A program made the translations under genes and the position numbers. Source: a plasmid. Taken from it: a stretch of 32,758 nt of DNA. Under the pieces are notes generated by a model. That model was not told the origin of the DNA. It did not search any database and was given only the letters and a program-made list of their open reading frames with translations. The stretch lies in sequence record NZ_CP035505.1; one strand, written 5' to 3'. Of the stretch, positions 328 through 32,275 are shown in pieces (the stretch's first letter is position 1; every line of letters begins with the position of its first letter).

Positions 328-1494
328 ATGACGAGTGTAGCAGTCTCGAAAACGCGAGCCCAGGGGACCCGTCACACCCGGCCCTTGCCCTCGCGGACGC
401 GCCGAGTGCGCGTGGAGAAGGAGCACAGCCCGCTCGCGCTGATGGGCGCGATGCCCGCCGGCTACCGTCCGCCGCGGCACGTCATGGAATGGAAGCGCGC
501 TGCTGATGCCTGGCTTGATAGCCGGTATATGCGTGCGGACGCCCGCCGCAACCGTGCGCGCGTCGTCCGCTGGTTGGCCGAGACCAACAACCCGCGCACC
601 CGCACGATCCTGACCACATGGCAGCGCATCCAGGACACCGTAGGGATCGCCCGGCGCACCGTGGCCCGCATCCTGGCCGAGCTACGTCAGGACGGCCTAC
701 TCGTCGTCGTGGCCACGGGCCGCAGCGCCGCACGAACCCCCCAGGCCACCGGCCGCACCTCCAACGAGGCCCCCGTCTACGCACTGTGCGTCGAATGCTC
801 GCAGGACGAGGCTGCACCTACTGACGGTGGCCCCCAGGAGGGAGACGCAGGGGCCAATGGGCATGTGGATATATCTGGCACCCCGGACCCCGTAGGGAGG
901 GTTAAGAAGCACCTACGCGCGCGCGAGGCGAACGAACCCGAATCGAGCCGCTACGCGGCCGGACTTACCCGGTGGCAGCGCGCTTCGCGCGCCGCCTTCG
1001 GGAACCTCTACGAGCAGCGAAAAGACCACTCGTGGTCACGCCACGCAACGATGAAGCCTGAGACGAGGCTGGGGCGCCGTAGTGCCCAACGTCAAGAGCT
1101 TTTCGAGCTGGCTTTGTGCGTGCAGGTGCACGTGTTGCGGGCACGGGAGGCCACCACGGCCGCCGTAGCGGCCGAGATCCGCCCGTTCATGCTCGCAGGG
1201 TGGACCGTGGGCGACGTCATCCACGCGCTCGACCGTGCGCCGGATGGGACGTCGCACTGGTACAGCGACTCCGGGTTTTTCCGCCCCGAGACGTGGCTAC
1301 GGCACCGTCTGAGCCAATGGCGCACCGCCGAAGGTGAGGTACGCGCGGCCTTCACCCATCGCGCCGAAGCCGCACGAGCCCAAGACCAAGCACGCGCCCG
1401 GGCCGAAGCCGAACGCACCGCAGCGCGCCGCGCGAAAGCGACCCCGGCGCCGGCGTGGTTCCGCGCAATGCGCGAAACCCAGAATTACCGGTAG
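328..1494 (+). CDS. wHTH DNA-binding protein, possible plasmid replication initiator (Rep) or regulator
   Basis: 388-aa ORF with a helix-turn-helix segment IARRTVARILAELRQDGLL. It sits directly upstream of the parA-parG module and of a cluster of iteron-like palindromes. Assignment as Rep comes from gene order only; no motif recognised with certainty. Confidence 0.4.
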   Translation: MTSVAVSKTRAQGTRHTRPLPSRTRRVRVEKEHSPLALMGAMPAGYRPPRHVMEWKRAADAWLDSRYMRADARRNRARVVRWLAETNNPRTRTILTTWQRIQDTVGIARRTVARILAELRQDGLLVVVATGRSAARTPQATGRTSNEAPVYALCVECSQDEAAPTDGGPQEGDAGANGHVDISGTPDPVGRVKKHLRAREANEPESSRYAAGLTRWQRASRAAFGNLYEQRKDHSWSRHATMKPETRLGRRSAQRQELFELALCVQVHVLRAREATTAAVAAEIRPFMLAGWTVGDVIHALDRAPDGTSHWYSDSGFFRPETWLRHRLSQWRTAEGEVRAAFTHRAEAARAQDQARARAEAERTAARRAKATPAPAWFRAMRETQNYR

Positions 1495-1540
1495 TGCGGC
1501 ATGCCGGTATACCGGCATGCCGTGGTGCCGGTATACTGGT
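1486..1540. promoter_or_regulatory. Palindrome cluster (TACCGGTA; 24-bp perfect palindrome GGCATGCCGGTATACCGGCATGCC at 1498-1521; CCGGTATACTGG) upstream of parA: candidate par operator/centromere-like site
   Basis: Perfect palindromes read directly in the sequence between the stop of the upstream ORF (1494) and the parA RBS. A TATACT -10-like hexamer lies at 1532-1537. A GGGGAGGAAAGACCCCC hairpin at ~1545-1561 resembles the leader hairpin of the three genes at 31.2-32.4 kb. Confidence 0.5.
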
Positions 1541-1579
1541 GGTGGGGAGGAAAGACCCCCAGGAGGAAAGGACAGCGAC

Positions 1580-2167
1580 ATGACACTGATAGCCGCAGTG
1601 CTGAACAGCAAAGGTGGGGTCGGCAAGACGACCACCTCGATCCATCTGGCTACCGCGCTGGATCGGAACTACAGCGTGGAAGTGTGGGATGCCGACCCGC
1701 AGGGCAGCGCGTGCGAATGGGCTGAGGTGACGGCCGAGGACGGCCGGCCGCTCCCGTTCGCTGTGGAGGCCGTGAATGCGCGGACCTTGGGTAGCCGCCG
1801 GCCCGACGTTGATGTGGTGGTGATCGACACTCCGCCGGGGGAACCGGCGCTGATGACGGCGGCGGCCAGGCGCGCTGATGTGGTGATCATCCCTACCGCC
1901 CCGGCAAACCTGGACATAGCCCGGGTGTGGCCCACGATGGACGCACTGGGGGAGACGCCGAAGGTGGTGCTACTGACTCACGCAGACCCGCGCACAGTGC
2001 TCTACCGCCAGGCGCGCGAAGCACTCGATGCCGAGGGTGTAGCCGTGTTTGACCGCGCGATCAGGCCTACCCAGCGGATCAAAGCCCAGGGCAACAGCTA
2101 CCCCAGAAAAATGTTCGGCTACGACGACGTAGCCGCCGAGCTGATGAAACTCATGAAGGACGGATAA
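1580..2167 (+). CDS. parA: ParA-family partition ATPase (small, ~195 aa)
   Basis: Deviant Walker A NSKGGVGKTTTSIHLA right after the ATG at 1580. RBS AGGAGGAAAGG lies 8 nt upstream. The longer ORF-track start at 1334 is rejected because it covers the palindrome cluster and RBS. Confidence 0.85.
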   Translation: MTLIAAVLNSKGGVGKTTTSIHLATALDRNYSVEVWDADPQGSACEWAEVTAEDGRPLPFAVEAVNARTLGSRRPDVDVVVIDTPPGEPALMTAAARRADVVIIPTAPANLDIARVWPTMDALGETPKVVLLTHADPRTVLYRQAREALDAEGVAVFDRAIRPTQRIKAQGNSYPRKMFGYDDVAAELMKLMKDG

Positions 2168-2169
2168 CG

Positions 2170-2397
2170 ATGACGGACAAGGCCAACAAGATGCGGCGCC
2201 CCAGCCGCACCAGCACTACCGCGACGTCGAACACGACCCCGGACATGGCAAGCGCGTTCACCGCGCGCCGCGAAGAAACCCGAAAACTCACCGCCGTGGT
2301 GTCGAAGGACCGCTACGACAAGCTACGGCGCATCGCTTTTGAGCGAGACACCTCGATCACACAACTGATCAACGAGGCCATCGACAAGCTCTCATAA
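2170..2397 (+). CDS. ParG-like ribbon-helix-helix centromere-binding protein (ParB functional analogue)
   Basis: 75-aa ORF starting 3 nt after the parA stop. Disordered basic N-terminus, then an RHH-like C-terminus KLRRIAFERDTSITQLINEAIDKL typical of ParG/omega-type partners of small ParAs. Confidence 0.6.
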   Translation: MTDKANKMRRPSRTSTTATSNTTPDMASAFTARREETRKLTAVVSKDRYDKLRRIAFERDTSITQLINEAIDKLS

Positions 2398-2599
2398 CCT
2401 CACCCAGAAAGGGGGCACCCGTCATGGTTACTTTCGGCATCATCGACGATCACCGCCAGAAGTTCGCCCGCCAGTTGGCGGAGGCGACCATCCCCATGGT
2501 CCACGCGAAAGGGATCTGGGCTGACCCCGTTTGGTAGGTCCGGTGGTTGTGTGAGTCGTCCTGTTGCCCGGGGGTCCGGGCAGTGAGACTGGTCAGATC

Positions 2600-2884
2600 A
2601 TGACGAACAGCAGGAAGCGTCACACCTCGGAGCAGGTCGTCCGTAAGCTCGGGCAGGCCGACAGGATGCTCGCGGGCGGTAGCGACATCGCCGCGGTGTG
2701 TCGGGAGCTTGGGATATCCGAGCAGACGTATTACCGGTGGCGTAACCAGTACGGCGGACTGAAGGCCGACGACGCGAAGCGCCTGAAGGAGCTGGAGAAG
2801 CAGAACGCCACGCTCAAGCGGTTGCTGGCCGAAGCGGAGCTGGAGAAGGCCGCGCTCAAGGAGCTGGCCGAGGGAAACTTCTAG
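2600..2884 (+). CDS. IS3-family transposase OrfA (HTH + leucine zipper)
   Basis: MTNSRKRHTSEQVVRKLGQADRMLAGG...KRLKELEKQNATLKRLLAEAELEKAALKELAEGNF is a typical IS3 OrfA. ATG 2600 is 83 bp inside the left IR. The upstream in-frame extension from 2564 is unlikely to be used. Confidence 0.85.
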   Translation: MTNSRKRHTSEQVVRKLGQADRMLAGGSDIAAVCRELGISEQTYYRWRNQYGGLKADDAKRLKELEKQNATLKRLLAEAELEKAALKELAEGNF

Positions 2885-2934
2885 GCCCGGGCAGGCGCCG
2901 CGCCGCCGTCTCGCACCTGATCAGGACACTGCAG

Positions 2935-3750
2935 GTGAGCGAGCGGATGGCGTGCCGTCTGGCCGGGCTGAGCAGGTCCGCATACCGTCGCCCGCTCCAG
3001 GGTGAGACGACAGCCGACCCGGACCTGGCGTTGCGGGACTGGCTGCGGGCGTATGCGAAGAAGCACCCGCGGTGGGGATACCGCAGGGCCTACCACGATG
3101 CCCGCGGCGAGGGGTGGGTCGTGAACCACAAGAAGATCCAACGGCTCTGGTGCGAGGAAGGGCTGCGCGTCCCGCAGCGGCGTCGCCGCAAACGCGTTGG
3201 GTCTTCGACCGTCGACGCCCCGGCAGCGGTCGCACCGAACCTCGTGTGGGCGGTGGACTTCCAGTTCGACGCGGACGAGCAGGGCCGTTCGATCAAGATC
3301 TGCTCCATCGTCGACGAGCACACCCGCGAGTGCATCGGCGGGCTCGTCGAACGGTCGATCACCGCGGACCGGCTCACCGCCCACCTCGAGGACCTCGTCG
3401 CCGTCCGCGGCGCCCCCGCGGTGCTCCGATCCGACAACGGCCCCGAGTTCATCAGCGACGCGATGGCCGACTGGGCCGGCACCCGCACCGGCCTGTTCTA
3501 CATCCCGCCCGGCTCGCCCTGGCACAACGGGTACGTCGAGTCGTTCAACAGCAGGCTCCGCGACGAGTGCCTGAACATCAACAGCTTCTACTCGCTGCTC
3601 CACGCCCAGGTCGTGATCGGCGACTGGAAGACCGAATACAACCACGACCGCCGGCATTCATCGCTCGGCTACCTACCCCCGGCCGAGTACGCTCGGCAGT
3701 GCACCCATCAATCGGAAACCGACGACTCGCACAGCGACCGGACCGAATGA
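2935..3750 (+). CDS. IS3-family transposase OrfB (DDE integrase core), normally made as an OrfAB fusion by -1 frameshift
   Basis: Contains RSDNGPEF and HSSLGY regions typical of the IS3 DDE domain. The orfB frame is open upstream through orfA in the -1 frame; the slippery heptamer GGGAAAC (2872-2878) sits 3 nt upstream of the orfA stop. Confidence 0.85.
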   Translation: MSERMACRLAGLSRSAYRRPLQGETTADPDLALRDWLRAYAKKHPRWGYRRAYHDARGEGWVVNHKKIQRLWCEEGLRVPQRRRRKRVGSSTVDAPAAVAPNLVWAVDFQFDADEQGRSIKICSIVDEHTRECIGGLVERSITADRLTAHLEDLVAVRGAPAVLRSDNGPEFISDAMADWAGTRTGLFYIPPGSPWHNGYVESFNSRLRDECLNINSFYSLLHAQVVIGDWKTEYNHDRRHSSLGYLPPAEYARQCTHQSETDDSHSDRTE

Positions 3751-7310: not shown

Positions 7311-8126
7311 TCATTCGGTCCGGTCGCTGTGCGAGTCGTCGGTTTCCGATTGATGGGTGCATTGCCGAGCGTAGTCGACGGGTGCGAGGTAGCCGAGCGA
7401 TGAATGCCGGCGGTCGTGGTTGTATTCGGTCTTCCAGTCGCCGATCACGACCTGGGCGTGGAGCAGCGAGTAGAAGCTGTTGATGTTCAGGCACTCGTCG
7501 CGGAGCCTGCTGTTGAACGACTCGACGTACCCGTTGTGCCAGGGCGAGCCGGGCGGGATGTAGAACAGGCCGGTGCGGGTGCCGGCCCAGTCGGCCATCG
7601 CGTCGCTGATGAACTCGGGGCCGTTGTCGGATCGGAGCACCGCGGGGGCGCCGCGGACGGCGACGAGGTCCTCGAGGTGGGCGGTGAGCCGGTCCGCGGT
7701 GATCGACCGTTCGACGAGCCCGCCGATGCACTCGCGGGTGTGCTCGTCGACGATGGAGCAGATCTTGATCGAACGGCCCTGCTCGTCCGCGTCGAACTGG
7801 AAGTCCACCGCCCACACGAGGTTCGGTGCGACCGCTGCCGGGGCGTCGACGGTCGAAGACCCAACGCGTTTGCGGCGACGCCGCTGCGGGACGCGCAGCC
7901 CTTCCTCGCACCAGAGCCGTTGGATCTTCTTGTGGTTCACGACCCACCCCTCGCCGCGGGCATCGTGGTAGGCCCTGCGGTATCCCCACCGCGGGTGCTT
8001 CTTCGCATACGCCCGCAGCCAGTCCCGCAACGCCAGGTCCGGGTCGGCTGTCGTCTCACCCTGGAGCGGGCGACGGTATGCGGACCTGCTCAGCCCGGCC
8101 AGACGGCACGCCATCCGCTCGCTCAC
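7311..8126 (-). CDS. IS3-family transposase OrfB (copy B)
   Basis: Identical protein to 2935-3750, apart from a few residues near the C-terminus where copy A differs. Confidence 0.85.
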   Translation of the reverse strand: MSERMACRLAGLSRSAYRRPLQGETTADPDLALRDWLRAYAKKHPRWGYRRAYHDARGEGWVVNHKKIQRLWCEEGLRVPQRRRRKRVGSSTVDAPAAVAPNLVWAVDFQFDADEQGRSIKICSIVDEHTRECIGGLVERSITADRLTAHLEDLVAVRGAPAVLRSDNGPEFISDAMADWAGTRTGLFYIPPGSPWHNGYVESFNSRLRDECLNINSFYSLLHAQVVIGDWKTEYNHDRRHSSLGYLAPVDYARQCTHQSETDDSHSDRTE

Positions 8127-8176
8127 CCGCAGCTTGCGCTTGAGGTGGTCGACGGCGGCGCGGCGCCTGCCCGGGC

Positions 8177-8461
8177 CTAGAAGTTTCCCTCGGCCAGCTC
8201 CTTGAGCGCGGCCTTCTCCAGCTCCGCTTCGGCCAGCAACCGCTTGAGCGTGGCGTTCTGCTTCTCCAGCTCCTTCAGGCGCTTCGCGTCGTCGGCCTTC
8301 AGTCCGCCGTACTGGTTCCGCCACCGGTAATACGTCTGCTCGGATATCCCAAGCTCCCGACACACCGCGGCGATGTCGCTACCGCCCGCGAGCATCCTGT
8401 CGGCCTGCCCGAGCTTACGGACGACCTGCTCCGAGGTGTGACGCTTCCTGCTGTTCGTCAT
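8177..8461 (-). CDS. IS3-family transposase OrfA (copy B)
   Basis: Identical protein to 2600-2884. Confidence 0.85.
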   Translation of the reverse strand: MTNSRKRHTSEQVVRKLGQADRMLAGGSDIAAVCRELGISEQTYYRWRNQYGGLKADDAKRLKELEKQNATLKRLLAEAELEKAALKELAEGNF

Positions 8462-8544
8462 GATCTGACCAGTCTCACTGCCCGGACCCCCGGGCAACAG
8501 GACGACTCACACAACCACCGGACCTACCAAACGGGGTCAGCCCA

Positions 8545-8597: not shown

Positions 8598-8676
8598 GTT
8601 TCCTCCTCCAAGCCCCGTCAGAGACCCGGGGGATCGGTTGTCTTACGGGCCTCCGGCGCGGCGCCAGCCACCATTG

Positions 8677-8715
8677 TAGACGGATCCGTCTAGCCAGAAT
8701 AGACGGATCCGTCTA
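8677..8715. promoter_or_regulatory. Two perfect 16-bp palindromes TAGACGGATCCGTCTA (8677-8692 and 8700-8715): candidate TetR operators
   Basis: Two identical perfect palindromes 7 bp apart, ending 2 nt before the tetR ATG, in the divergent intergenic region. This is the classic TetR-family operator arrangement. Confidence 0.6.
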
Positions 8716-8717
8716 GC

Positions 8718-9356
8718 ATGGTGCGCATGATGGCAGTCATCCCCGAAGCCCAGGCCACTGCGCCGAACCGGTCGCCTGCGAGGTCCACGGGAGCTCGTGA
8801 GCGGATCATGGCGACCGCCCGCCGGCTGTTCTACACACGCGGCATCAATGCCACCGGCATCGATCTGGTGATCGCTGAGGCCGGCGTGGCCAAGGGCAGC
8901 ATGTATCACCACTTCGGCAACAAACAGGCTCTGGTAGTGGCTTACCTCCAGCAGGAGGAGGCCACCTGGAAAGCCGCTTCCGAAACCAGGGACGACCCCC
9001 GGGCCAGCGCGACTGAGCGCTTGAGAGTCTTCTTCGATGGAATCTCTGTCGATGTTCTGGCCGGCACGTTCCACGGATGCCCGTTCATGAACGCCGCCAT
9101 CGAACGCCCGGATGATCTCGGGGTGGGCCAGGTGATCGCTCATTACCGGGAAGCACTGGCCTCACATATCGCCCATTTGCTCGGGGAGGACGGGTCCTCG
9201 ACCGCGGTGGACAAGGTGATGGTGCTGTACGACGGGGCGAAAACGTCCGCCAAGATGACACGGGATCCTGCGCTGGTCGAGCTGGCCGCCGACATGGCCT
9301 GCGAAGTTGTTCATGGGCACGGTTCGACTCGCAGGCCGATAGCTCGGAAGGGATGA
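8718..9356 (+). CDS. TetR/AcrR-family transcriptional regulator
   Basis: N-terminal HTH RERIMATARRLFYTRGINATGIDLVIAEAGVAKGSMYHHFGNKQALVVAY is a canonical TetR_N signature. Confidence 0.85.
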   Translation: MVRMMAVIPEAQATAPNRSPARSTGARERIMATARRLFYTRGINATGIDLVIAEAGVAKGSMYHHFGNKQALVVAYLQQEEATWKAASETRDDPRASATERLRVFFDGISVDVLAGTFHGCPFMNAAIERPDDLGVGQVIAHYREALASHIAHLLGEDGSSTAVDKVMVLYDGAKTSAKMTRDPALVELAADMACEVVHGHGSTRRPIARKG

Positions 9357-10189: not shown

Positions 10190-10470
10190 CCCATGTTCTC
10201 TGCCCCGGTGACCTGGGGGCCGGTAGGTCAGCGCGCCGGCGGCGGCGAAGCCCTGGAGCCGGCGCGCTGAGGGTTCAGCCGGTGGGCGGCCACTCAGTCG
10301 GAGGAAATCAGTTTCATGGAGATCGAGTTGATGCAGAACCGCTGATCGGTGGGGGTCTGGAAACCTTCACCTTCGAAGAGGTGCCCCTGGGCTGACCCCG
10401 TTTGGTAGGTCCGGTGGTTGTGTGAGTCGTCCTGTTGCCCGGGGGTCCGGGCAGTGAGACTGGTCAGATC

Positions 10471-10755
10471 ATGACGAACAGCAGGAAGCGTCACACCTCG
10501 GAGCAGGTCGTCCGTAAGCTCGGGCAGGCCGACAGGATGCTCGCGGGCGGTAGCGACATCGCCGCGGTGTGTCGGGAGCTTGGGATATCCGAGCAGACGT
10601 ATTACCGGTGGCGTAACCAGTACGGCGGACTGAAGGCCGACGACGCGAAGCGCCTGAAGGAGCTGGAGAAGCAGAACGCCACGCTCAAGCGGTTGCTGGC
10701 CGAAGCGGAGCTGGAGAAGGCCGCGCTCAAGGAGCTGGCCGAGGGAAACTTCTAG
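10471..10755 (+). CDS. IS3-family transposase OrfA (copy C)
   Basis: Identical to the copy A OrfA. Confidence 0.85.
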   Translation: MTNSRKRHTSEQVVRKLGQADRMLAGGSDIAAVCRELGISEQTYYRWRNQYGGLKADDAKRLKELEKQNATLKRLLAEAELEKAALKELAEGNF

Positions 10756-10805
10756 GCCCGGGCAGGCGCCGCGCCGCCGTCTCGCACCTGATCAGGACAC
10801 TGCAG

Positions 10806-11621
10806 GTGAGCGAGCGGATGGCGTGCCGTCTGGCCGGGCTGAGCAGGTCCGCATACCGTCGCCCGCTCCAGGGTGAGACGACAGCCGACCCGGACCTGGC
10901 GTTGCGGGACTGGCTGCGGGCGTATGCGAAGAAGCACCCGCGGTGGGGATACCGCAGGGCCTACCACGATGCCCGCGGCGAGGGGTGGGTCGTGAACCAC
11001 AAGAAGATCCAACGGCTCTGGTGCGAGGAAGGGCTGCGCGTCCCGCAGCGGCGTCGCCGCAAACGCGTTGGGTCTTCGACCGTCGACGCCCCGGCAGCGG
11101 TCGCACCGAACCTCGTGTGGGCGGTGGACTTCCAGTTCGACGCGGACGAGCAGGGCCGTTCGATCAAGATCTGCTCCATCGTCGACGAGCACACCCGCGA
11201 GTGCATCGGCGGGCTCGTCGAACGGTCGATCACCGCGGACCGGCTCACCGCCCACCTCGAGGACCTCGTCGCCGTCCGCGGCGCCCCCGCGGTGCTCCGA
11301 TCCGACAACGGCCCCGAGTTCATCAGCGACGCGATGGCCGACTGGGCCGGCACCCGCACCGGCCTGTTCTACATCCCGCCCGGCTCGCCCTGGCACAACG
11401 GGTACGTCGAGTCGTTCAACAGCAGGCTCCGCGACGAGTGCCTGAACATCAACAGCTTCTACTCGCTGCTCCACGCCCAGGTCGTGATCGGCGACTGGAA
11501 GACCGAATACAACCACGACCGCCGGCATTCATCGCTCGGCTACCTCGCACCCGTCGACTACGCTCGGCAATGCACCCATCAATCGGAAACCGACGACTCG
11601 CACAGCGACCGGACCGAATGA
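10806..11621 (+). CDS. IS3-family transposase OrfB (copy C)
   Basis: Identical to the copy B OrfB (…GYLAPVDYARQ… variant). Confidence 0.85.
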   Translation: MSERMACRLAGLSRSAYRRPLQGETTADPDLALRDWLRAYAKKHPRWGYRRAYHDARGEGWVVNHKKIQRLWCEEGLRVPQRRRRKRVGSSTVDAPAAVAPNLVWAVDFQFDADEQGRSIKICSIVDEHTRECIGGLVERSITADRLTAHLEDLVAVRGAPAVLRSDNGPEFISDAMADWAGTRTGLFYIPPGSPWHNGYVESFNSRLRDECLNINSFYSLLHAQVVIGDWKTEYNHDRRHSSLGYLAPVDYARQCTHQSETDDSHSDRTE

Positions 11622-12207
11622 AGGGGGCGGCCCACCCCAGGTGGGAGTCGCATCGGGAACAGCGCACTTCGATGCGCTCCATCCCCAAGGACCGATCACG
11701 TAGGTAACGCACCCTGTCCTCGGCCAGGGGAGCCCAGAACGAGGGCCACCCGCAGTGCGAGTCGAACTTCTCAGTGCTGGTGAACAGCTCTTGGCCACAC
11801 GCCCGGCACTGATAGACACCGGTGGTGTGCGCGTCGTAGTACTGGCCCGTGTACGGCCTCTCGGTGCCCGCCTTCCGGAGTACCTGGAACTCCTGCGGCG
11901 TCAGTTCCTCACGCCACTGCTCCTCACTCTTGGTCATGCCCCTAACGGTTTGAACCGGCTCGTTCTAAAACCGACAGAGGTGGTTGCCACTCGGGTCTTC
12001 CGAATCCGAGGAAACTCGCATGACTCACAGAACTTCGTACGCCGGCGTCAGGCCCATCACCGCCTGGTGGTGCTGCGCCACGTGGAGGAGGTCTGGTCGG
12101 ACGGAATTCTGGACAACTCCACACCGGATCCAGGGTGCTAAGACCGCGTCGCCAACCTGGTGGGTCAGTAAGTTTCCTCGCGCCGTATGGCAGAGTTGCG
12201 TCCTGCA

Positions 12208-13596
12208 GAGTGGTGTACGGGTAGCCCGGTGAGCGCGTCGTCACAGACGAAGGCGGTCACCGCGTGATCCTTCGAGTGAACCTTCCACAGCACTCTCGAA
12301 GAGGACCATCACGATGACCGCTCCTTCCAGTATCGACCCTGCCCAGTTCCTGCACGAGCACCTCGCCCAGGCCTCACCGGACCTGCTGCGCCAGATGCTC
12401 ACGACCTTCGTGAATACCCTGCTCTCGGCCGAGGCCGACACGGTGTGCGGGGCTGCCTACGGGGCCTCGTCCCCGGAGCGGGTGAATCAGCGCAACGGCT
12501 ACCGCCACCGCGACTTCGACACCCGCGCCGGGACCCTCGACGTGGCGATCCCCAAGCTGCGCACCGGCACCTACTTCCCGGAGTGGCTCCTCGAGCGCCG
12601 CCGGCGGGCCGAGTCCGCGCTGACCTCGGTGGTGGCCACCTGCTACCTGCTGGGGGTCTCGACGCGCCGGATGGACAAGCTCGTGCAGTCGCTGGGCATC
12701 ACCGGGCTGTCTCGCTCCCAGGTCTCGACCATGGCCACCGACCTCGACGAGCACGTGGCGTCCTTCCGCACCCGCCCCCTGGATGCCGGGCCGTACACGT
12801 TCGTGGCCGCCGACGCCCTGACGATGAAGGTCCGCGAGGGCGGGCGGGTGGTGAAGGTCGCGGTCATGGTCGCCACCGGCGTCAACGCCGACGGCCACCG
12901 GGAGATCCTCGGCGTGCAGGTGGCCACGGCCGAGTCCGGGGCCGGGTGGCTCACGTTTTTCCGGGATCTAGTGGCCCGCGGGCTGGCCGGGGTGCGACTG
13001 GTGACTTCTGACGCCCACGCCGGGCTGGTGGAGGCCATCGGGGCGACCCTGCCTGGGGCGTCCTGGCAGCGGTGCCGCACCCACTACGCGGCCAACCTCA
13101 TGGCGACCACACCGAAGGCCTCCTGGCCGGCCGTGAAGGCGATGCTGCACTCGGTCTACGACCAGCCCGACGCCGCCTCGGTGCAGGCGCAGTTCGACAA
13201 GCTCCTCGAGATGGTCGAGCCCCAGCTGCCAGCCGTGCACGCCCACCTGGACGAGGCCCGGGCCGAGATCCTGGCCTTCACCACCTTCCCGAAGGGGCTG
13301 TGGCGGCAGATCTGGTCGAACAACCCCAACGAGCGGCTCAACCGCGAGATCCGCCGCCGGACCGACGTGGTCGGGATCTTCCCGGACCGCACCTCGCTGA
13401 TCCGTCTGGTCGGGGCGGTGCTGGCCGAGCAGCACGACGAGTGGGCCGAAGGCCGCCGCTATCTGGGCCTGGACGTACTGGCCAAGTCCCGCCTGAACCT
13501 CGTCAATACCGCCGACACCGATCAGGAGGACACCACCGCCCTCGGCGCCCTCAGCGCCTGACCCCACGAGGATCACGCCGAATCTGTACACCACTC
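12208..13596 (+). mobile_element. IS256-family insertion sequence (approximate ends)
   Basis: A single 415-aa mutator-type transposase ORF flanked by an imperfect terminal inverted repeat with core GAGTGGTGTAC (12208-12218) and GTACACCACTC (13586-13596). No clear 8-bp target duplication was seen, so the ends are approximate. Confidence 0.55.
12314..13561 (+). CDS. IS256-family (Mutator-like) transposase
   Basis: 415 aa. The segments ...RNGYRHRDFDTRAGTLDVAIPKLRTGTYFPEWL... and DAHAGLVEAI... / FPDRTSLIRLVGAVL are characteristic of IS256/MULE transposases. Confidence 0.85.
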   Translation: MTAPSSIDPAQFLHEHLAQASPDLLRQMLTTFVNTLLSAEADTVCGAAYGASSPERVNQRNGYRHRDFDTRAGTLDVAIPKLRTGTYFPEWLLERRRRAESALTSVVATCYLLGVSTRRMDKLVQSLGITGLSRSQVSTMATDLDEHVASFRTRPLDAGPYTFVAADALTMKVREGGRVVKVAVMVATGVNADGHREILGVQVATAESGAGWLTFFRDLVARGLAGVRLVTSDAHAGLVEAIGATLPGASWQRCRTHYAANLMATTPKASWPAVKAMLHSVYDQPDAASVQAQFDKLLEMVEPQLPAVHAHLDEARAEILAFTTFPKGLWRQIWSNNPNERLNREIRRRTDVVGIFPDRTSLIRLVGAVLAEQHDEWAEGRRYLGLDVLAKSRLNLVNTADTDQEDTTALGALSA

Positions 13597-14096: not shown

Positions 14097-14912
14097 TCAT
14101 TCGGTCCGGTCGCTCTGTGAGTCGTCGGTTTCGATTTGATGGGTGCACTGCCGAGCGTACTCGGCCGGGGGTAGGTAGCCGAGCGATGAGTGCCGACGCT
14201 GATGGTTGTACTCGGTCTTCCAGTCGCCGATCACGACCTGGGCGTGCAGCAGTGAGTAGAAGCTGTTGATGTTGAGGCACTCGTCGCGGAGGCGGCTGTT
14301 GAACGATTCGACGTATCCGTTGTGCCAGGGCGAGCCGGGCGGGATGTAGAACAGGCCGGTGCGGGTACCCGCCCAGTCGGCCATCGCGTCGCTGATGAAC
14401 TCGGGCCCGTTGTCGCTGCGGAGCACACCCGGTGCACCGCGGACGGCGACGAGCTCTTCGAGGTGGGCGGTGAGCCGGTCGGCGGTGATCGACCGCTCCA
14501 CGAGCCCGCCGATGCATTCGCGGGTGTGCTCGTCGACGATGGAGCAGATCTTGATCGGGCAGCCCCGCTCGTCGGCGTCGAACTGGAAGTCCACCGCCCA
14601 TACGAGGTTCGGTGCGACTGCCGCCGGGGCGTCGACGGTCGAGGATCCGACACGCTTGCGGCGTCGCCGCTGCGGGACGCGGAGGCCTTCGGCTCGCCAG
14701 AGGCGTTGGATCTTCTTGTGGTTGACCGCCCAGCCCTCACCCCGGGCGTCGTGATACGCCCGCCGGTACCCGTAGCGGGGATGCTTCTTCGCCCACGCGC
14801 GCAGCCAGTCTCGCAACGCGCGATCAGGGTCGGCGACCGTGTCGCCCTTGAGCGGGCGACGGTATGCGGACCTGCTCAGCCCGGCCAGACGGCACGCCAT
14901 CCGCTCGCTCAC
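14097..14912 (-). CDS. IS3-family transposase OrfB (copy D, diverged)
   Basis: Homologous to 2935-3750. The frame is open further upstream (to 15149), consistent with OrfAB fusion. Confidence 0.8.
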   Translation of the reverse strand: MSERMACRLAGLSRSAYRRPLKGDTVADPDRALRDWLRAWAKKHPRYGYRRAYHDARGEGWAVNHKKIQRLWRAEGLRVPQRRRRKRVGSSTVDAPAAVAPNLVWAVDFQFDADERGCPIKICSIVDEHTRECIGGLVERSITADRLTAHLEELVAVRGAPGVLRSDNGPEFISDAMADWAGTRTGLFYIPPGSPWHNGYVESFNSRLRDECLNINSFYSLLHAQVVIGDWKTEYNHQRRHSSLGYLPPAEYARQCTHQIETDDSQSDRTE

Positions 14913-14962
14913 CTGCAGTGTCCTGATCAGGTGCGAGACGGCGGCGCGGCGCCTGCCCGGGC

Positions 14963-15247
14963 CTAGAAGTTTCCCTCGGCCAGCTCCTTGAGCGCGGCCT
15001 TCTCCAGCTCCGCTTCGGCCAGCAACCGCTTGAGCGTGGCGTTCTGCTTCTCCAGCTCCTTCAGGCGCTTCGCGTCGTCGGCCTTCAGTCCGCCGTACTG
15101 GTTCCGCCACCGGTAATACGTCTGCTCGGATATCCCAAGCTCCCGACACACCGCGGCGATGTCGCTACCGCCCGCGAGCATCCTGTCGGCCTGCCCGAGC
15201 TTACGGACGACCTGCTCCGGGGTGTGACGCTTCCTGCTGTTCGACAT
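14963..15247 (-). CDS. IS3-family transposase OrfA (copy D, diverged)
   Basis: MSNSRKRHTPEQVVRKLGQADRMLAGGSDIAAVCRELGISEQTYYRWRNQYGG...; ATG 83 bp inside the IRL as in the other copies. Confidence 0.8.
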   Translation of the reverse strand: MSNSRKRHTPEQVVRKLGQADRMLAGGSDIAAVCRELGISEQTYYRWRNQYGGLKADDAKRLKELEKQNATLKRLLAEAELEKAALKELAEGNF

Positions 15248-15524
15248 GATCTGACCAGTCTCCCTGCCCGGACCCACGGGCGACAGGACGACTCCCAGAA
15301 CCACCGGACCTAAAAAACGGGGTCAGCCCAGGCCCCCTCATCGAATACGGGATCACCCACGGCGCCCGCCGCATCGTTTATCCCGCGCGCAGCGAGTGGG
15401 ACTACACCATCTGACTAGAGACGAGCGGGCCTGGTAACCCAGGCCCGCTCGCACACACGGACCAAGAACCACCCTGGTCCGACACGTATTTTCCCACACC
15501 GTACGATATGGAGGGGGGTGACCC

Positions 15525-27554: not shown

Positions 27555-27558
27555 GAAC

Positions 27559-27741: not shown

Positions 27742-27756
27742 TCCTCTACAGCGCCG

Positions 27757-27795: not shown

Positions 27796-27833
27796 GCTTT
27801 GCCCGTAGAGCGGTCAAGGGACAACCCACACCC

Positions 27834-28000
27834 GTAACATGAGGTGTAACATGACCTATAACATGCAATGTTATAGGCGACCCCCGGAACCCTGCCCCAC
27901 GAGACGCCAACTCGACCAAGACCACTCCCCCTCTTCGTCCCTCATCAGTGCAGTGGTCTTGGTCGAGTTGGCTTGGGGCAGGGTTCCGGGGGTCGAGTTG
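27834..28000. other. Candidate origin of transfer (oriT): three TAACATG direct repeats, a 10-bp-stem hairpin, and a ~40-bp imperfect inverted repeat with GTCGAGTTGG iterated
   Basis: GTAACATGA at 27834, 27845 and 27857, about one helical turn apart. Hairpin CCTATAACAT-gca-ATGTTATAGG at 27854-27876. Inverted-repeat arms 27880-27925 and 27951-27991 (CCCCCGGAACCCTGCCCCA...CCAACTCGACCAAGACCACT / AGTGGTCTTGGTCGAGTTGG..TGGGGCAGGGTTCCGGGGG), with a third GTCGAGTTGG at 27991-28000. Located between an RHH gene and a Replic_Relax-like gene adjacent to the coupling protein gene. Confidence 0.45.
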
Positions 28001-28101
28001 GTGAGTCAGGTTCAGTTGGGAGGGTGTGGAGTAGTTGAAGAAAAGATTATAGAGAATCGAAAGTTTTTATTTCAGTAGAGTATTGAAAGAAGTAGATTTA
28101 T

Positions 28102-28797
28102 ATGATTGTTGATCGAGATGTGGAGTTGTTGAGTTTTATGAGTCAGTGGCAGTTTATGATTGTTAGGCAGTGTGCGGAGTATTTGGGTTGTTCGGAGCAG
28201 GTGGCGAGGCGGCGTTTGCGTAGTTTGAGGTCGGCTGGGTTGGTGGATGTTACGGTTCCGTTTGCGGATTACCGGCAGGTCTATTGGGTTAATAAGGATG
28301 GTCTCAAATTTTTGCGGAAGTCGTTGCCGGTGGATAGACCGCGTTATGGTCCGAAAATATCGCAGTTTGTCCATGATCGTATATTGGTGGATTTGGCTGT
28401 TTCGTTTCATCGGGAGAATCCCAGTTACACAATATTCGGTGAGCTGGAGATGCGGCGCCTGGATGCGGAGGCGGTTTCAAAGTCTGAGGAAACGCAGTTT
28501 GCGCTCAAGCGTTGGCAAGCGGGTCGTTATGTTAGCGTATTTCCCGATATGTCGGCCGTAAAGGGGAATGCGCGGTTTGTTATCGAGTATGAGCATACGA
28601 AAAAGCAGCGTCAACGACTAAGGTCGTTGATGTATTCGTATGCGACGAGTACGGAAGTTACGGCGGTCAAGTATTATGTGGCGCCGGCGGCGTATTCTCA
28701 GGCGGTGAGCATTTACAAAGAGTTGGAGCCAACTCTCCCGCTCGTTGGGGGTAAACCTAAGCTGCAAGTTGCTCTCTATGAGGATAAAGGAGTCTGA
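28102..28797 (+). CDS. Replication-relaxation (Replic_Relax) family protein, putative relaxase/relaxosome component, in low-GC GT-rich island
   Basis: 231 aa. The N-terminal wHTH pattern RDVELLSFMSQWQFMIVRQCAEYLGCSEQVARRRLRSLRSAGLVD and the later HDRILVDLAVSF match the Replic_Relax family layout as I recall it. Stop overlaps the start of the coupling-protein gene (TGATATG). GC content is markedly lower than the flanks. Confidence 0.5.
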   Translation: MIVDRDVELLSFMSQWQFMIVRQCAEYLGCSEQVARRRLRSLRSAGLVDVTVPFADYRQVYWVNKDGLKFLRKSLPVDRPRYGPKISQFVHDRILVDLAVSFHRENPSYTIFGELEMRRLDAEAVSKSEETQFALKRWQAGRYVSVFPDMSAVKGNARFVIEYEHTKKQRQRLRSLMYSYATSTEVTAVKYYVAPAAYSQAVSIYKELEPTLPLVGGKPKLQVALYEDKGV

Positions 28798-28798
28798 T

Positions 28799-30934
28799 AT
28801 GTCAGCGCATGGTGGTCCGCGTATTCGCATGAGGGATACGGAAAGGCGGCCAGAACAAGACGCCTTAACTACAATGTCTCGCGCCGCTGCCTTGATCTTC
28901 GTTCTGCTTACGCCTCTGACGGCTGTTTTGGTGTTTGTGCTTGCGGTGCTTTTGTCTCGTATCAAAAAGGTGCGGCCGTGGTGGTTCTTGTTGGCTGGAC
29001 TGATCCTGTTCGTCATATCGTTCGTTGCGGGAGGGTTCCGGGCGTATTTCACGATCTACCGCGAGCTGTTCGCTCTGGTGGCTAACGGGTCCGGTCTCTC
29101 CTCGATAGGCACTGAGGTCGCGGAATATCTCGGAAGTGAGTGGAGTCGGTTACTTCTCACTCAGGTGTGGCTTGGTGTTCCTCTCGCTCTAATCATCGCT
29201 TCGATCATCATCCTTGCTCGTGGTCGATACGCGGCGAAGTGGCGAGACCGGGGTGAGGACAGTCTGAAACCTCAGCAGCAGATTTCACGGGCGTTGAAAA
29301 AAGCTCCCGAGTGGCCTCAGAAAGACGTCCGCAGTCTTGATGATTTACTGGTGCGCCTTGGGGTCAATGAACATGACGGCCGGCCGTGGGACATTTCACT
29401 TGCTGCATTGCGGCATCACGTCTTTGTATGCGGCCCTTCCGGGTTCGGTAAGACCACGACCATCATCGAGGTACTACGAGGGCTGACCCAGGCGCCGGCC
29501 GCCGCGCGGTTCAGGATCGGGACGGTGTTCATCACGATGAAGCCAGACCCGGACATGACGGATGCGCTGCGCGCCTTAGCTGAGCTGTCCGGCCGGCGGT
29601 TCCACCACGTGACCCATGATGGAACAGGAGTGACGTACAACCCGCTACGGCACGGGACGGCCGCTCAACGCCGCAACATTCTCATCGAGGCCGAAGCGAA
29701 TGCCGCCAACGGTGGATTTAGTGAGCCCCACTACCGGATCACCGGGTCACGGTTCACTCTGCTGGCGCTGCGTGCTTTGGAGCAGGCGTGTGAGCTGCGA
29801 GAGTCCTACAGTTTCGGTGGACACCGCCGAAACTGGACGATGGATATACACGACCTCACGCGCATGATGCGCCCGTCCTTTTTGGAACACATGGCCGATG
29901 TGGGTGAAGACGAGGGTCTAAAGGCAGATATCCGCGACTACTTTCAAGAGATGCAGGATGACCCGTCCGTCGCCGGAGGCGTGGGGGGCATGCGCGCACG
30001 CTTCTCCAACATCGCCGAAGGGGCCGCCGGCGCCACGCTGCGCGAGGACACCGCCGGGCTGGACTTGCGAGAGGCTATCCAGAACGGCGACGTCGTGGTG
30101 TTCGATTTGGACGCGGCCACCGATATGGAGGCGGCCCAGTACGTCGCCAACCTGGCCGTTGCTGACTGGACCGCTGCTATCTCCGAACTTGGACAAGCGA
30201 AGTGGCATGGAGACCCCAGCGATCCCCAACGCATGAACCTGCTTGTTGTGGACGAGTTCTCGGGTCTAGGCGGCGCTGGGTTGAAAAACGCTCTCGCGCG
30301 ATCACGCAGTCAAGGTGGCTCAGTGATGCTCAGCACCCAGAGTTACGGTGAGCTGGCCGAGACTTCGGTGAAAGGATTCCGTGCATCACTGATCACCAAC
30401 ACGTCAGTGAAGCTGCTGCACCGCATCGAGGACGAGGCCGAAGAACTGGCCCAACTGGCTGGGACCCGTAAAGCGATGAAGGAGACGACCCAGACGTTCG
30501 AGGACCGCGATCTGCTGGGTTCCCAGACTCGAGCTAGTGGGCAGGGTTCACTCCGTGAAGTTGATGAGTTCAAGATCCATCCCAATGTCCTCAAGGATCT
30601 CGAACCGGGCGAGATCGTGGCGCTGATCCGCAAACCCAAGGAGTATGCGCGGGTGATGGTGCGGAGAACGCCCCCGCACGCGCTGGTCAGCACTCTCGAA
30701 GCCGCCAAGACGACCAATGAAGAAACCCGCCCCGCCACCGAAGATCACGACAGTGCAGTGGCAGGTAAGACTCAGGCTCGGGAAGGCCAGAAGCAATCGG
30801 CATGGACGGCAGCCGCCATTCAGGCTCGGACTCCCTCGCAGGCGAAGGCCCAAGACGACCCGCGCGCGCCGGCGGTTTCAATGGGTGGGGAGGACGAGGG
30901 CAGCGACGCCATGGATATGCCCATCCGTGAGTGA
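28799..30934 (+). CDS. Type IV coupling protein (VirD4/TraG/TcpA-like, TraM-recognition-domain type)
   Basis: RBS AAAGGAG before ATG 28799. Two N-terminal TM segments, Walker A VCGPSGFGKTT and Walker B-like LLVVDEFSGLGG. Its C-terminal tail is acidic. Confidence 0.75.
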   Translation: MSAHGGPRIRMRDTERRPEQDALTTMSRAAALIFVLLTPLTAVLVFVLAVLLSRIKKVRPWWFLLAGLILFVISFVAGGFRAYFTIYRELFALVANGSGLSSIGTEVAEYLGSEWSRLLLTQVWLGVPLALIIASIIILARGRYAAKWRDRGEDSLKPQQQISRALKKAPEWPQKDVRSLDDLLVRLGVNEHDGRPWDISLAALRHHVFVCGPSGFGKTTTIIEVLRGLTQAPAAARFRIGTVFITMKPDPDMTDALRALAELSGRRFHHVTHDGTGVTYNPLRHGTAAQRRNILIEAEANAANGGFSEPHYRITGSRFTLLALRALEQACELRESYSFGGHRRNWTMDIHDLTRMMRPSFLEHMADVGEDEGLKADIRDYFQEMQDDPSVAGGVGGMRARFSNIAEGAAGATLREDTAGLDLREAIQNGDVVVFDLDAATDMEAAQYVANLAVADWTAAISELGQAKWHGDPSDPQRMNLLVVDEFSGLGGAGLKNALARSRSQGGSVMLSTQSYGELAETSVKGFRASLITNTSVKLLHRIEDEAEELAQLAGTRKAMKETTQTFEDRDLLGSQTRASGQGSLREVDEFKIHPNVLKDLEPGEIVALIRKPKEYARVMVRRTPPHALVSTLEAAKTTNEETRPATEDHDSAVAGKTQAREGQKQSAWTAAAIQARTPSQAKAQDDPRAPAVSMGGEDEGSDAMDMPIRE

Positions 30935-30986
30935 GTGGTGAGCTGACATGGTGGGCCAGTGTGCGCCGAAAGGGCACCTCGCCGGT

Positions 30987-31123
30987 CCGTCGTCCTGATA
31001 GCCCAGCATAGGGGCCGCTACAGGCAGTCAAGGGCGCCTACGGCGTCGCTGCGCGATGGGCTACGCCCACCCTTGACAGCCTTCCGCTTACCCCCTATTT
31101 GCTTCCAGCTATCAGGACGACGG
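30987..31123. repeat. Nested inverted repeats: 16-bp perfect arms CCGTCGTCCTGATAGC / GCTATCAGGACGACGG 105 bp apart, enclosing inner GTCAAGGG / CCCTTGAC arms
   Basis: Read directly in the sequence, in the intergenic region between the coupling-protein gene and the first leader-cassette gene. Confidence 0.5.
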
Positions 31124-31235
31124 TCCAGGCTGACACCGCGGCCAGTAGGCCGGCACCTTCGCGCGGAGGCTCCCGCATGCCCCGCGCCGGCCGCGGTCGG
31201 ATGAGAAAAAGCCTTGTGAATCTCGGGATATCCCC

Positions 31236-31318
31236 TTGTGTTCTATAACTACGCACTGTAGACTAAGAACATAACGCGGGGGAGGGAAAGACCCCCACCA
31301 ACCGAGAGGACGCAGGCA
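31236..31318 (+). promoter_or_regulatory. Promoter + conserved leader cassette, copy 1 (-35 TTGTGT, 17-bp spacer, -10 TAGACT, leader hairpin GGGGG-AGGGAAAGA-CCCCC, RBS GAGAGGA)
   Basis: Near-identical ~60-bp block GTAGACTAAGAACAT(A/C)A(C/G)CGGGGGAGGGAAAGACCCCCACCAACCGA(G/A)(A/G)GGA repeated at 31846 and 32279. The hexamers and spacing were counted directly. Confidence 0.55.
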
Positions 31319-31741
31319 ATGAGCACCACGACCACCACCAAGCAGCAGCAGCGCAAGGAAGCCGCCGCGGCCAAGCGCGCCGAGGTCCAGGCCAAGGCTG
31401 CCGAGGCAGTGCAGCGGATCGAAACCGACCCGGATACCGCTGCCCGCTTCGAGGCACTGGCTGACCGCCTACCGGCCTACAGCTTGAAGAATTTGCAACT
31501 GATTTTCGCCCAGTTCCCCGAGGCGTCAATGTGCGCCGGATTCAACAAGTGGCGCGAGGAAGGCCGCACCGTGCGGAAGGGTGAGCGCGGCATCAAGATT
31601 TTTGCCCCGACCCAGCGGACCAAGAAGGACGAGAAGGGCGCACCGATCATCGACCGCGCGACCGGGGAGCCGGAGAAAGAAGCCGGATGGGTGATGGTCA
31701 CCGTCTTCGATATCAGCCAGACCGACGAGCTGACCGACTGA
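31319..31741 (+). CDS. ArdC N-terminal domain-like (DUF1738-type) ssDNA-binding protein, standalone
   Basis: The segment YSLKNLQLIFAQFPEASMCAGFNKWREEGRTVRKGERGIKIFAP matches the conserved core of the ArdC/TraC N-terminal ssDNA-binding domain (…YS..N..LI..Q…AT.VAGF..W..LGR.V.KGEKGI.I.AP). No metalloprotease C-domain is present. Confidence 0.6.
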   Translation: MSTTTTTKQQQRKEAAAAKRAEVQAKAAEAVQRIETDPDTAARFEALADRLPAYSLKNLQLIFAQFPEASMCAGFNKWREEGRTVRKGERGIKIFAPTQRTKKDEKGAPIIDRATGEPEKEAGWVMVTVFDISQTDELTD

Positions 31742-31758
31742 GCAAGCACCACCACAGC

Positions 31759-31816
31759 GGCCGGGGGAGCTACTCCCCCGGCCGTTGTTATGCCGGCACG
31801 CCGGCGTGCCGGCATA
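31759..31816. terminator. Terminator hairpin GGCCGGGGGAG-cta-CTCCCCCGGCC followed by 28-bp perfect palindrome TATGCCGGCACGCCGGCGTGCCGGCATA
   Basis: The hairpin starts 18 nt after the stop at 31739-31741. The palindrome (31789-31816) is perfect and related to the GGCATGCCGG motifs upstream of parA. Confidence 0.5.
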
Positions 31817-31843
31817 CCGCGCGAAAAACAATGTGGTTACCCC

Positions 31844-31925
31844 TTGTGTTTCTAAAATACAGCGCGTAGACTAAGAACATCAGCGGGGGAGGGAAAGACC
31901 CCCACCAACCGAAGGGATACCGATC
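31844..31925 (+). promoter_or_regulatory. Promoter + conserved leader cassette, copy 2 (-35 TTGTGT, 17-bp spacer, -10 TAGACT, same hairpin, RBS GAAGGGA)
   Basis: See copy 1; near-identical sequence. Confidence 0.55.
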
Positions 31926-32174
31926 ATGGACGCCACTACCGCCACTGAAATGATGACCGTCTACGTCTGCCAGTGCTGCGCGCTGCTCATCGCCAACGGC
32001 GACGACACCGAATGCCGCGACTACTACGACCACGAGCACGCTCCGTGCGAGCTGGACGCGGCCGCACTTACCGGCGCGAGCACCGAGGCCGCGACCGCGA
32101 CCCGCTGCGACGGCTGCGGGCAGAACTGCGGGGCGTTCGCCCCGATGTTCGAGGCGGAGGCGGCCGCAGGCTGA
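31926..32174 (+). CDS. Small Cys-rich protein (8 Cys in 82 aa; CQCC…C…C…CDGCGQNC), possible zinc-binding
   Basis: ATG 31926 behind leader copy 2. The cysteine spacing suggests a metal-binding fold. Acidic overall. No family recognised. Confidence 0.45.
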   Translation: MDATTATEMMTVYVCQCCALLIANGDDTECRDYYDHEHAPCELDAAALTGASTEAATATRCDGCGQNCGAFAPMFEAEAAAG

Positions 32175-32191
32175 GAGCCGACACGCCGCAA

Positions 32192-32275
32192 CGGCCGGGG
32201 GTTCACTCCCCCGGCCGTTGTCATGCCGGCGCACCGGCATGCCGCACTGCCGTTACGCCGGCAAGCCGCCGCCGG
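32192..32275. terminator. Terminator hairpin GGCCGGGGG-ttcac-TCCCCCGGCC followed by CATGCCGG-cgca-CCGGCATG and further GCCGGCA repeats
   Basis: Same hairpin family as 31759-31783. Contains CCGGCATGCC, identical to the decamer inside the parA-upstream palindrome. Confidence 0.5.

Follow-up and report, generated by a model that had tools for sequence, protein, structure and literature searches.

The closest described counterparts of the sites analysed here, arrays of short tetramer boxes at the parA promoter and in the leading region of a Kocuria plasmid (record NZ_CP035505.1, a stretch of 32,758 bp called the window below), belong to plasmid partition and segregation systems. The type Ib module par2 of pB171, ordered parC1-parA-parB-parC2, has a ribbon-helix-helix (RHH) ParB protein, and repeat arrays flank its operon at either end. 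KorB of the IncP plasmid RK2 is a large helix-turn-helix (HTH) protein of the ParB family that acts through single palindromic operators around the whole plasmid, and the sites of StbA from the IncW plasmid R388 are direct repeats of another kind. ParG of TP228 binds ACTC tetramer boxes with a regular 4-bp spacing, of which the OF operator has eight and parH twelve, with one dimer per box, cooperative coating of the array, tolerance of box orientation, and N-terminal tails that contact ParF (PMC3130281). Omega of pSM19035, an RHH ParB protein that is global repressor and centromere binder alike, uses 7-bp repeats over three promoter regions that double as parS, and at least four contiguous repeats are required for full activation of ParA (PMC9499535). 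StbA is a segregation protein that represses PardC and other maintenance promoters of R388, where expression overshoots after conjugation and is then shut off (PMC3937220).

The window comes from a plasmid of Kocuria marina subsp. indica and holds a module comparable to TP228 ParF/ParG/parH. A small ParA-type ATPase gene is followed by the gene for a basic-tailed protein of 75 amino acids (aa) with an RHH-like C-terminus, annotated by NCBI as KocCE7_12670 and called the ParG-like protein here (ParG has 76 aa), and the same box grammar stands upstream of parA, where it would likewise combine operator and centromere in one. Unlike in TP228, the box is CCGG instead of ACTC, the spacers are mixed (TATA, CATG, GGTG) and not uniformly AT-rich, the array has 7 units and not 20, and further arrays lie kilobases away at other promoters, a feature absent from TP228 as described. 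Those further arrays recall omega, since arrays of one repeat stand at the promoters of several operons and would presumably be occupied by a single protein. Omega, however, recognises heptads of 7 bp (WATCACW) that are contiguous, 7-10 to an array, and its arrays overlap copy-control, partition and toxin-antitoxin promoters, whereas the units here measure 8 bp, and the secondary arrays, of 3-6 units, lie upstream of leading-region promoters on an actinobacterial conjugative plasmid.

Action of a segregation protein on leading or maintenance promoters, as we propose it here, would parallel StbA (and ArdK) of R388, although StbA is an HTH protein that works without a plasmid ParA, and the ArdC-like gene of the window has no array, in contrast to the repressed ardC of R388; arrays precede the next three genes instead. 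The original prediction for this DNA, made from its letters alone, had likened the sites to those of KorB/ParB-type global regulators. As a concept the likeness to KorB holds, in that a partition protein would have operator sites at several operons, but the protein class is wrong: the partner of ParA is the 75-aa RHH-like protein, and Pfam scans of 30 open reading frames (ORFs), from which the gene map was also drawn, found no ParBc or KorB-type domain. The sites are, moreover, multi-unit arrays clustered within ~5 kb.

The locus is a known design reused, a type Ib partition module with a probable RHH adaptor and with further sites in front of leading-region promoters, and by analogy the most economical reading would be an adaptor of the ParG type whose extra sites recall those of omega or StbA. 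We assign a probability of about 0.6 to the model in which the 75-aa ParG-like protein is the single binder of the par array and of all the leading-region arrays; which protein binds, where the promoters lie and what regulation results are points that we infer from sequence. If the ParG-like protein does bind all four arrays, it would be an actinobacterial partition adaptor that also controls leading-region (establishment) genes, a link so far documented mainly for StbA of R388, KorB of RK2 and omega of the Gram-positive inc18 plasmids.

CCGG boxes with an 8-bp period

All three palindromes named in the original prediction are found in the sequence. A perfect 24-bp palindrome, GGCATGCCGGTATACCGGCATGCC, lies at 1498-1521, nested in a 48-bp near-palindrome (1486-1533); a perfect 28-bp palindrome, TATGCCGGCACGCCGGCGTGCCGGCATA, occupies 31789-31816; and CATGCCGGcgcaCCGGCATG stands at 32222-32241 (palindrome 8+4+8). 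A decamer, CCGGCATGCC, is identical at the first and third of these sites, as had been noticed, but its positions are 1512-1521 and 32234-32243, each one base away from where it had been placed. The palindromes are parts of arrays of CCGG tetramer boxes with 4-bp spacers, a strict 8-bp period and the unit TGCCGGTA/TACCGGCA. Their grouping into one sequence family therefore stands, through shared units, phasing and extended identity, whereas an 8-bp-phased array of tetramer boxes describes the sites better than a palindromic operator as the recognition element.

The par array, which resembles an operator or centromere, spans 1486-1541 and has seven units (TACCGGTA GTGCGGCA TGCCGGTA TACCGGCA TGCCGTGG TGCCGGTA TACTGGTG), with boxes starting at 1488, 1496, 1504, 1512, 1520, 1528 and 1536. 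The first leading-region array (31789-31816) has units at 31791-31814 (TGCCGGCA CGCCGGCG TGCCGGCA) and boxes at 31793, 31801 and 31809. The second (32222-32275) has about six units at 32224-32271 (TGCCGGCG CACCGGCA TGCCGCAC TGCCGTTA CGCCGGCA AGCCGCCG), with boxes at 32226, 32234, 32242, 32250, 32258 and 32266. A further array lies outside the window, after the DUF3560 gene, in a 9.3-kb metagenomic contig (L005) that a look-up of the ArdC-like and ParG-like proteins showed to hold both; it reads GTGCCGGTAATGCGGCACACCGGTA, with units TGCCGGTA ATGCGGCA CACCGGTA. The parA promoter array and the three leading-region intergenic arrays thus have a unit type in common.

The likeness extends beyond the boxes. 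Positions 1486-1519 of the par array, in reverse complement, match 32222-32255 at 29/34 bases (manual count), including the degenerate unit GCCGCACT and the spacers, and 1486-1509 match the array in L005 at 20/24. When 24-mers of the par array are scored on the cassette arrays, the best reach 21/24 and 20/24, and the null does not exceed 17-19/24. The arrays at 31789 and 32222 lie in paralogous intergenic regions (79% identity over 183 nt), so the independent comparison is that of the par array with the cassette arrays.

The contig L005 runs from the ArdC gene through the last bases of the window and 2,836 bp of additional sequence into the first bases of the window, so the replicon is circular; the window together with this gap segment gives a reconstructed plasmid of 35.6 kb. 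The distance of ~30 kb between the par and leading-region sites in the original prediction is therefore an artefact of linearisation: through the 2,836 bp, position 32222 lies ~4.9 kb from 1498, or ~2 kb if the 32,758-bp record is a complete circle. Nor do the sites form a plasmid-wide operator set, since arrays occur only at the par promoter and in cassettes of the leading region, over no more than ~5 kb of the circle.

A count of the half-site, which had been suggested as a check, gave little. The 8-mer CATGCCGG is not enriched (4 found, 2.9 expected) and TGCCGGYA is mildly so (9 found, 3.2 expected), counts that would suit a chance resemblance in GC-rich sequence. The signal resides in the arrangement and not in word frequency, as bare 8-mer and 9-mer half-sites showed little or no enrichment. 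The inverted repeat ATGCCGG-N(2-16)-CCGGCAT has three matches, all intergenic, and none in each of 100 shuffles, and CCGG-N4-CCGG-N4-CCGK with at most one mismatch has 27, against 2.4 expected and a largest shuffle value of 8. Occurrence at random frequency, which the original prediction had counted against itself, was found for the bare 8-mer and not for these phased and inverted-repeat arrangements.

In the reconstructed plasmid, 14 pairs of CCGG boxes stand 8 bp apart and another 14 stand 16 bp apart; for other distances the count is mostly 0-10. Arrays of at least three exact boxes in six slots are found with period 8 at the four sites and at one coding site, while periods 5-13 otherwise give 0-3, a result in agreement with an unbiased search over all tetramers and with dinucleotide shuffles. 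A scored phased scan of the same 35.6 kb passes only the par array, 31785-31820 and 32226-32261 (other periods, 0-5 hits); the three-box array of the gap falls under its threshold in L005 and above it in an expanded form described below. The same scan passed no array in the transfer, replication and cargo regions, and period-7 scans found no arrays. With the period-8 specificity, the extended identity over 34 bases and the intergenic position of all sites, the shuffle and period controls effectively refute chance resemblance, to which we give next to no probability.

The placement of the sites at the parA promoter and, in the leading region, between the terminator of one gene and the promoter of the next was correct. 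One cassette layout recurs in four leading-region intergenic regions: a GC-rich terminator hairpin, the array, CTTGTGTT, ~17 nt, TAGACT, AAGAACATCAGC, the hairpin GGGGGAGGGAAAGACCCCC, a ribosome-binding site and ATG. The first cassette (putative promoter and leader at 31236-31299, plus strand as are all those that follow), upstream of the ArdC-like gene (ArdC-N domain, 31319-31741), has no phased array. In the second, a GC-rich hairpin after the ArdC-like gene (31754-31788, putative terminator) precedes the first array and a putative promoter and leader (31844-31906; TTGTGT at 31844, 17 nt, TAGACT, then the leader hairpin), recognised by conservation, for the gene of a Cys-rich protein (31926-32174). 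In the third, the corresponding hairpin after the Cys-rich gene (32189-32220) is followed by the second array and by a putative promoter and leader at 32278-32340, with a putative -35 TTGAAT at 32278, for the DUF3560 gene, whose start is at 32360 and whose 3' part lies beyond the window end. The fourth is that of the gap. Neither putative terminator hairpin in the window has a T-tract in this plasmid.

At parA, a putative -10 TATACT (1532-1537) lies within the array, between boxes 6 and 7, as placed by its position relative to the conserved leader hairpin GGGG-AGGAAAGA-CCCC (1544-1559), which is common to the leading-region cassettes. Because a scan with E. coli-type promoter and terminator consensus sequences detected neither the cassette promoters nor the parA promoter nor the terminators, whose T-tracts are degenerate here, promoter positions were taken from the alignment of the four cassettes. 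The window has three copies of the hairpin GGGGGAGGGAAAGACCCCC, whose loop is purine-rich, and the gap has a fourth (L005 3375-3445); a variant form stands in the parA leader. The hairpin may influence how stable the mRNA is or how its translation is controlled, and in relatives another hairpin takes its place in the cassette. An Rfam scan of the window found no family. CCGG boxes in the terminator stems were considered as in-phase extensions of the arrays and ruled out, as those of cassettes 2 and 4 keep the phase and those of cassette 3 are off by one.

The palindromes could alternatively matter as nucleic-acid structures, either as hairpins that reinforce the terminators or as hairpins on the incoming single strand that serve in priming, as single-strand promoters or in protection from nucleases. 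Leading regions do use single-strand structures, a large conserved hairpin lies nearby (30975-31140), and the perfect 28-bp palindrome of cassette 2 directly follows a terminator hairpin without a T-tract, at a place where relatives have TTTTT. Structure alone, however, leaves unexplained the 8-bp phasing, the non-palindromic continuation of the second array (32242-32275), the arrays of relatives such as L022, which consist mostly of direct repeats, and the unit identity with the parA operator. There is no T-tract after the palindromes on either strand, and the consensus terminator scan found none at them, so that we regard this explanation as quite improbable.

The ParG-like protein and related partition loci

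The parA gene (1580-2167, plus strand) encodes a Walker-type protein of 195 aa that matches CbiA, AAA_31, ParA and MipZ from residue 4 onward, and its relatives have 191-205 aa; by sequence, ParA is of type Ib, small and without an N-terminal DNA-binding domain. The ParG-like gene follows at 2170-2397 on the same strand, its product having a basic N-terminal tail and a C-terminal region with a candidate ribbon strand at about residues 37-45 (TRKLTAVVS). Matches to the Pfam families RHH_7 and Antitox_RHH both fall below the cut-off. A profile search of the PDB with the family returned RHH proteins in all of the top four places, including CopG (E = 0.05), MazE7 (E = 0.097) and ParG of TP228 (1P94; E = 0.15, covering residues 16-70 of 76), and pairwise hhalign gave probabilities of 93% for CopG and 74% for ParG. 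These matches are consistent with an RHH fold, while the similarity to ParG, at the profile level only, is a further difference from TP228.

The original prediction named the 75-aa protein as the obvious candidate binder, and it is still the best candidate that we found, although binding itself is predicted. Two other proteins were set aside as binders. The small RHH-like ORF at 13-213 (RHH66) is missing in relatives that still carry par arrays; indeed, L018, L020 and L023 lack both RHH66 and the window-type Rep, and there arrays still accompany the pair of parA and small gene. The other is a 111-aa HTH protein encoded in the leading region; L034/L035, with no arrays in their cassettes, encode it as well.

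The window is itself the longest known contig with the ParG-like protein, for which a word-indexed homologue search returned only the protein itself and a fragment, a full HMMER search seven weak hits, and tblastn against PLSDB no matches. As the protein is almost without detectable homologues, relatives were reached through ParA and ArdC. We examined 12 loci with ParA relatives (ParA identity 42-100%, or 42-70% among the relatives) by autocorrelation of the 100 nt upstream of parA against shuffles, and lag 8 or 16 was the top peak in 12/12 (shuffle P <= 0.02). The period is kept while the box changes: the par unit is CCGGTA in L022, CCGTAA/ACGTAA in L029, CCGTA/TACGG in L025, ACGG/CCGT in both orientations in L018 and L020, TTGACGTC/TAGACGTC (GACGTC type) in L023, L034 and pTGY1120_3_1, and ATGA/TCAT in L049 and L050.

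Each relative's parA is followed by the gene for a protein of 75-86 aa that can be aligned to the window's ParG-like protein through a basic tail, an F-E-x-A-F motif, a strand of the form (K/R)(K/R)(L/Y/F)T... and two helices, and the ribbon-strand residues differ between clades along with the box sequence. This defines a widespread, unannotated ParG-like family, whose member in the window has no Pfam match above threshold, and the strict 8-bp grammar of tetramer boxes with varying box sequence offers a natural series for the study of RHH specificity.

Six of the loci (L018, L020, L023, L024, L025 and L050) have a second cognate array at the 3' end of the partner gene, the two-array layout of pB171 par2; unlike par2, the window plasmid has no array after the partner gene and has its additional arrays in the leading region. 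In L022 the second cognate array lies 0.9 kb downstream of the partner gene, ahead of the SSB/transfer operon. This five-unit array (L022 3494-3535) reads GCCGGTAC GCCGGTGT GCCGGTAT AACGGTAT ACCGGCCA, and the homologous stretch of the window (15897-15935) retains only a degenerate remnant, GCCGTAAC CCCGCAGG TTAGGCGT GCCGTAGA.

Close variants bear on how the arrays change. The arrays of 18 metagenomic copies are identical or nearly identical to those of the window, so that microdiversity was uninformative, and only the variants L051-L053 helped. In L052, whose ParA/ParG DNA is 98.5% identical to the window, the par array is an exact 2x24-bp tandem of TACCGGTA GTGCGGCA TGCCGGTA, and the cassette-4 array has grown from 3 to 6-7 units, TGCCGGTA ATGCGGCA TACCGGCA TACCGGCA TGCCGGTA GCGCAGGA CGCCGGCA, of the TGCCGGTA/TACCGGCA/TGCGGCA types. 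These variants also have a backbone free of insertion sequences (IS), in the order ParG-like gene, acetyltransferase gene, 108-aa gene, 123-aa gene and SSB gene.

Possible occupants and roles of the leading-region arrays

If the protein behaves like ParG of TP228, each CCGG box would hold one RHH dimer, and cooperative binding of adjacent dimers would coat the array; TGCCGGTATACCGGCA is a candidate target DNA for an RHH dimer or a dimer of dimers. Since the seven-unit par array overlaps the likely -10, we propose that it is an autoregulatory operator as well as a centromere that recruits ParA. The shorter arrays, between the terminator and the promoter of three consecutive genes (Cys-rich, DUF3560 and glutaredoxin-like) 2-5 kb from parA, would let ParG-like protein accumulating in a transconjugant turn down or insulate early establishment promoters. 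Alternatively or additionally, they may be auxiliary centromere or pairing sites. Centromere-like parS sites had been put forward as an alternative to operators; a centromere role is plausible, but it is not an alternative, as a type Ib repeat array is operator and centromere at once (PMC3130281, PMC9499535). The arrays point to where the centromere, the incompatibility determinant and the par promoter probably lie on this plasmid, which is common in Kocuria-containing metagenomes.

Several observations weigh against the ParG-like protein as the single binder of all four arrays, or against parts of the roles just given. The RHH assignment comes from sub-threshold sequence matches, and a single-sequence AlphaFold2 model, uninformative for an obligate dimer, shows one long helix. 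The cassette arrays stop short of the putative -35, by 27 bp in cassette 2, 2 bp in cassette 3 and ~15-20 bp in cassette 4, so that those of cassettes 2 and 4 do not extend over the core promoter. Centromere activity of the three-box arrays in two of the cassettes is doubtful, because omega activates ParA poorly with fewer than 4 contiguous repeats (PMC9499535).

Other such points come from relatives, in which cassette arrays were compared with par boxes for co-variation. The cassettes of L018, L034/L035, L024 and pTGY1120_3_1 have no arrays, and since those of L018, L034/L035 and L024 do without them, the arrays are dispensable for cassette function. A T-tract and CATGCC(C)GG after the terminator are kept in L018, in L034/L035 and in the first cassette of L023, though not in pTGY1120_3_1; because CATGCC(C)GG is kept despite different par boxes, the left arm of the palindromes, and with it part of the similarity, is ancestral to the cassette. 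The main caveat is L023 (K. marina KCTC 9943). Behind its Cys-rich and DUF3560 genes, the cassettes hold significant 8-bp-phased CCGK arrays (10 hits, 0.8 expected) at 10890-10933 and 12050-12093, nearly identical to each other and resembling par units of the window clade, whereas its own par arrays consist of TTGACGTC/TCTAGACG units (GACGTC/AGACG boxes). The neighbouring ParG-like protein of L023 is thus not the obvious binder of its non-cognate cassette arrays, and a recent swap of the par module, the cognate protein of a co-resident plasmid or a different binder are possible reasons for the mismatch.

These observations lend themselves to another explanation, in which only the parA-proximal array works and the cassette arrays are bound by another leading-region or host factor, or are relics of an ancestral plasmid with CCGK par boxes; as relics, they would resemble the par operator through common descent or module shuffling and not through current co-regulation. 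The phased CCGK arrays that L023 retains despite its GACGTC par boxes and the ancestral CATGCC(C)GG fit it. So do the exchange of par modules between backbones, seen in ParA identities of 42-46% where ArdC has 58-65%, and the hairpin common to the parA leader and the cassettes, which suggests recombination. No better binder was found, however, the 111-aa HTH protein being shared with the array-less L034/L035, and the cassette unit types are those of the cognate par operator on the same plasmid. Relics, moreover, are not expected to hold an exact 8-bp phase and par-type units while growing from 3 to 6-7 units; the variant L052, with unit number and order changed but phase and unit type kept, shows what is expected of a protein-coated array. 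We therefore consider this explanation possible but unlikely, and retain the ParG-like protein as the preferred binder of all four arrays.

A related proposal, which we judge improbable although it would account for L023, treats the leading-region arrays as a device for timing or cross-talk. Assembly of the partition complex would directly switch off the early programme of anti-restriction and establishment genes, and the CCGK arrays would be read by the plasmid's own ParG-like protein or by that of a related resident plasmid. A plasmid already resident in the cell could then shut down establishment genes on a relative that enters, and this would account for the non-cognate arrays of L023. The perfect palindromes might in addition form duplex hairpins on the incoming single strand, readable before the complementary strand is synthesised.

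The plasmid and its other elements

The window has a GC content of ~64%. Besides the genes given above, it carries a Rep-like protein (328-1494, Pfam scan), an IS-rich cargo block at ~2.5-15.3 kb and a transfer region of Gram-positive type with SSB, TcpC, a VirB4-like ATPase, a TrbL-like protein, a CHAP protein and a coupling protein (28745-30934). The cargo block contains four IS3-family copies (2564-3750; 7311-8497, minus strand; 10435-11621; 14097-15304, minus strand) that flank the cargo, and an IS256-family transposase (Transposase_mut, 12314-13561). Among the genes between the IS copies are one for an alpha/beta hydrolase and a TetR/DUF417 pair.

The 2,836-bp segment of L005 encodes the rest of the DUF3560 protein, a glutaredoxin-like protein, the 111-aa HTH protein, a 116-aa protein on the opposite strand and a resolvase. 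It is carried by many metagenomic copies, so that the deposited 32,758-bp record is either a deletion variant or incompletely closed. The end of the window, inside the DUF3560 gene (32360-32758), and the RHH ORF at 13-213, which begins 12 nt after the window start, are in frame across the junction. A megablast search of PLSDB with both window ends gave IS3 matches only.

Between the coupling-protein gene and the ArdC cassette lies a strongly conserved structured element of ~165 nt (30975-31140), a long hairpin with outer arms CCGTCGTCCTGATAGC / GCTATCAGGACGACGG that is tipped by three small stem-loops. Its DNA fold has -52.3 kcal/mol (z = -7.9) with 9 compensatory pairs and no Rfam match, and it is 80% identical across four plasmids, whereas the ArdC proteins are only 61-65% identical; TTGACA lies in the 3' arm. 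It is a candidate oriT, a candidate element of the single-strand stage (a priming site or single-strand promoter) or a candidate non-coding RNA.

A perfect 28-bp AT-rich palindrome, GATAAAATAATGCATGCATTATTTTATC (16134-16161), stands directly upstream of the SSB/transfer operon, with a similar sequence at the same place in L022, and is probably an operator or promoter element of that operon. Just upstream of a Replic_Relax/HTH-like gene (28102-28797), a perfect 21-nt inverted repeat with a 25-nt loop (27906-27972) marks a further candidate oriT or regulatory element; the adjoining stretch 28001-29000 has an unusually low GC content (0.49) and a strong GC skew (+0.31). Finally, a likely TetR operator is a 24-nt inverted repeat at 8669-8723, 92% complementary, which includes TAGACGGATCCGTCTA and reaches into the start of the TetR-family gene (8718-9356).

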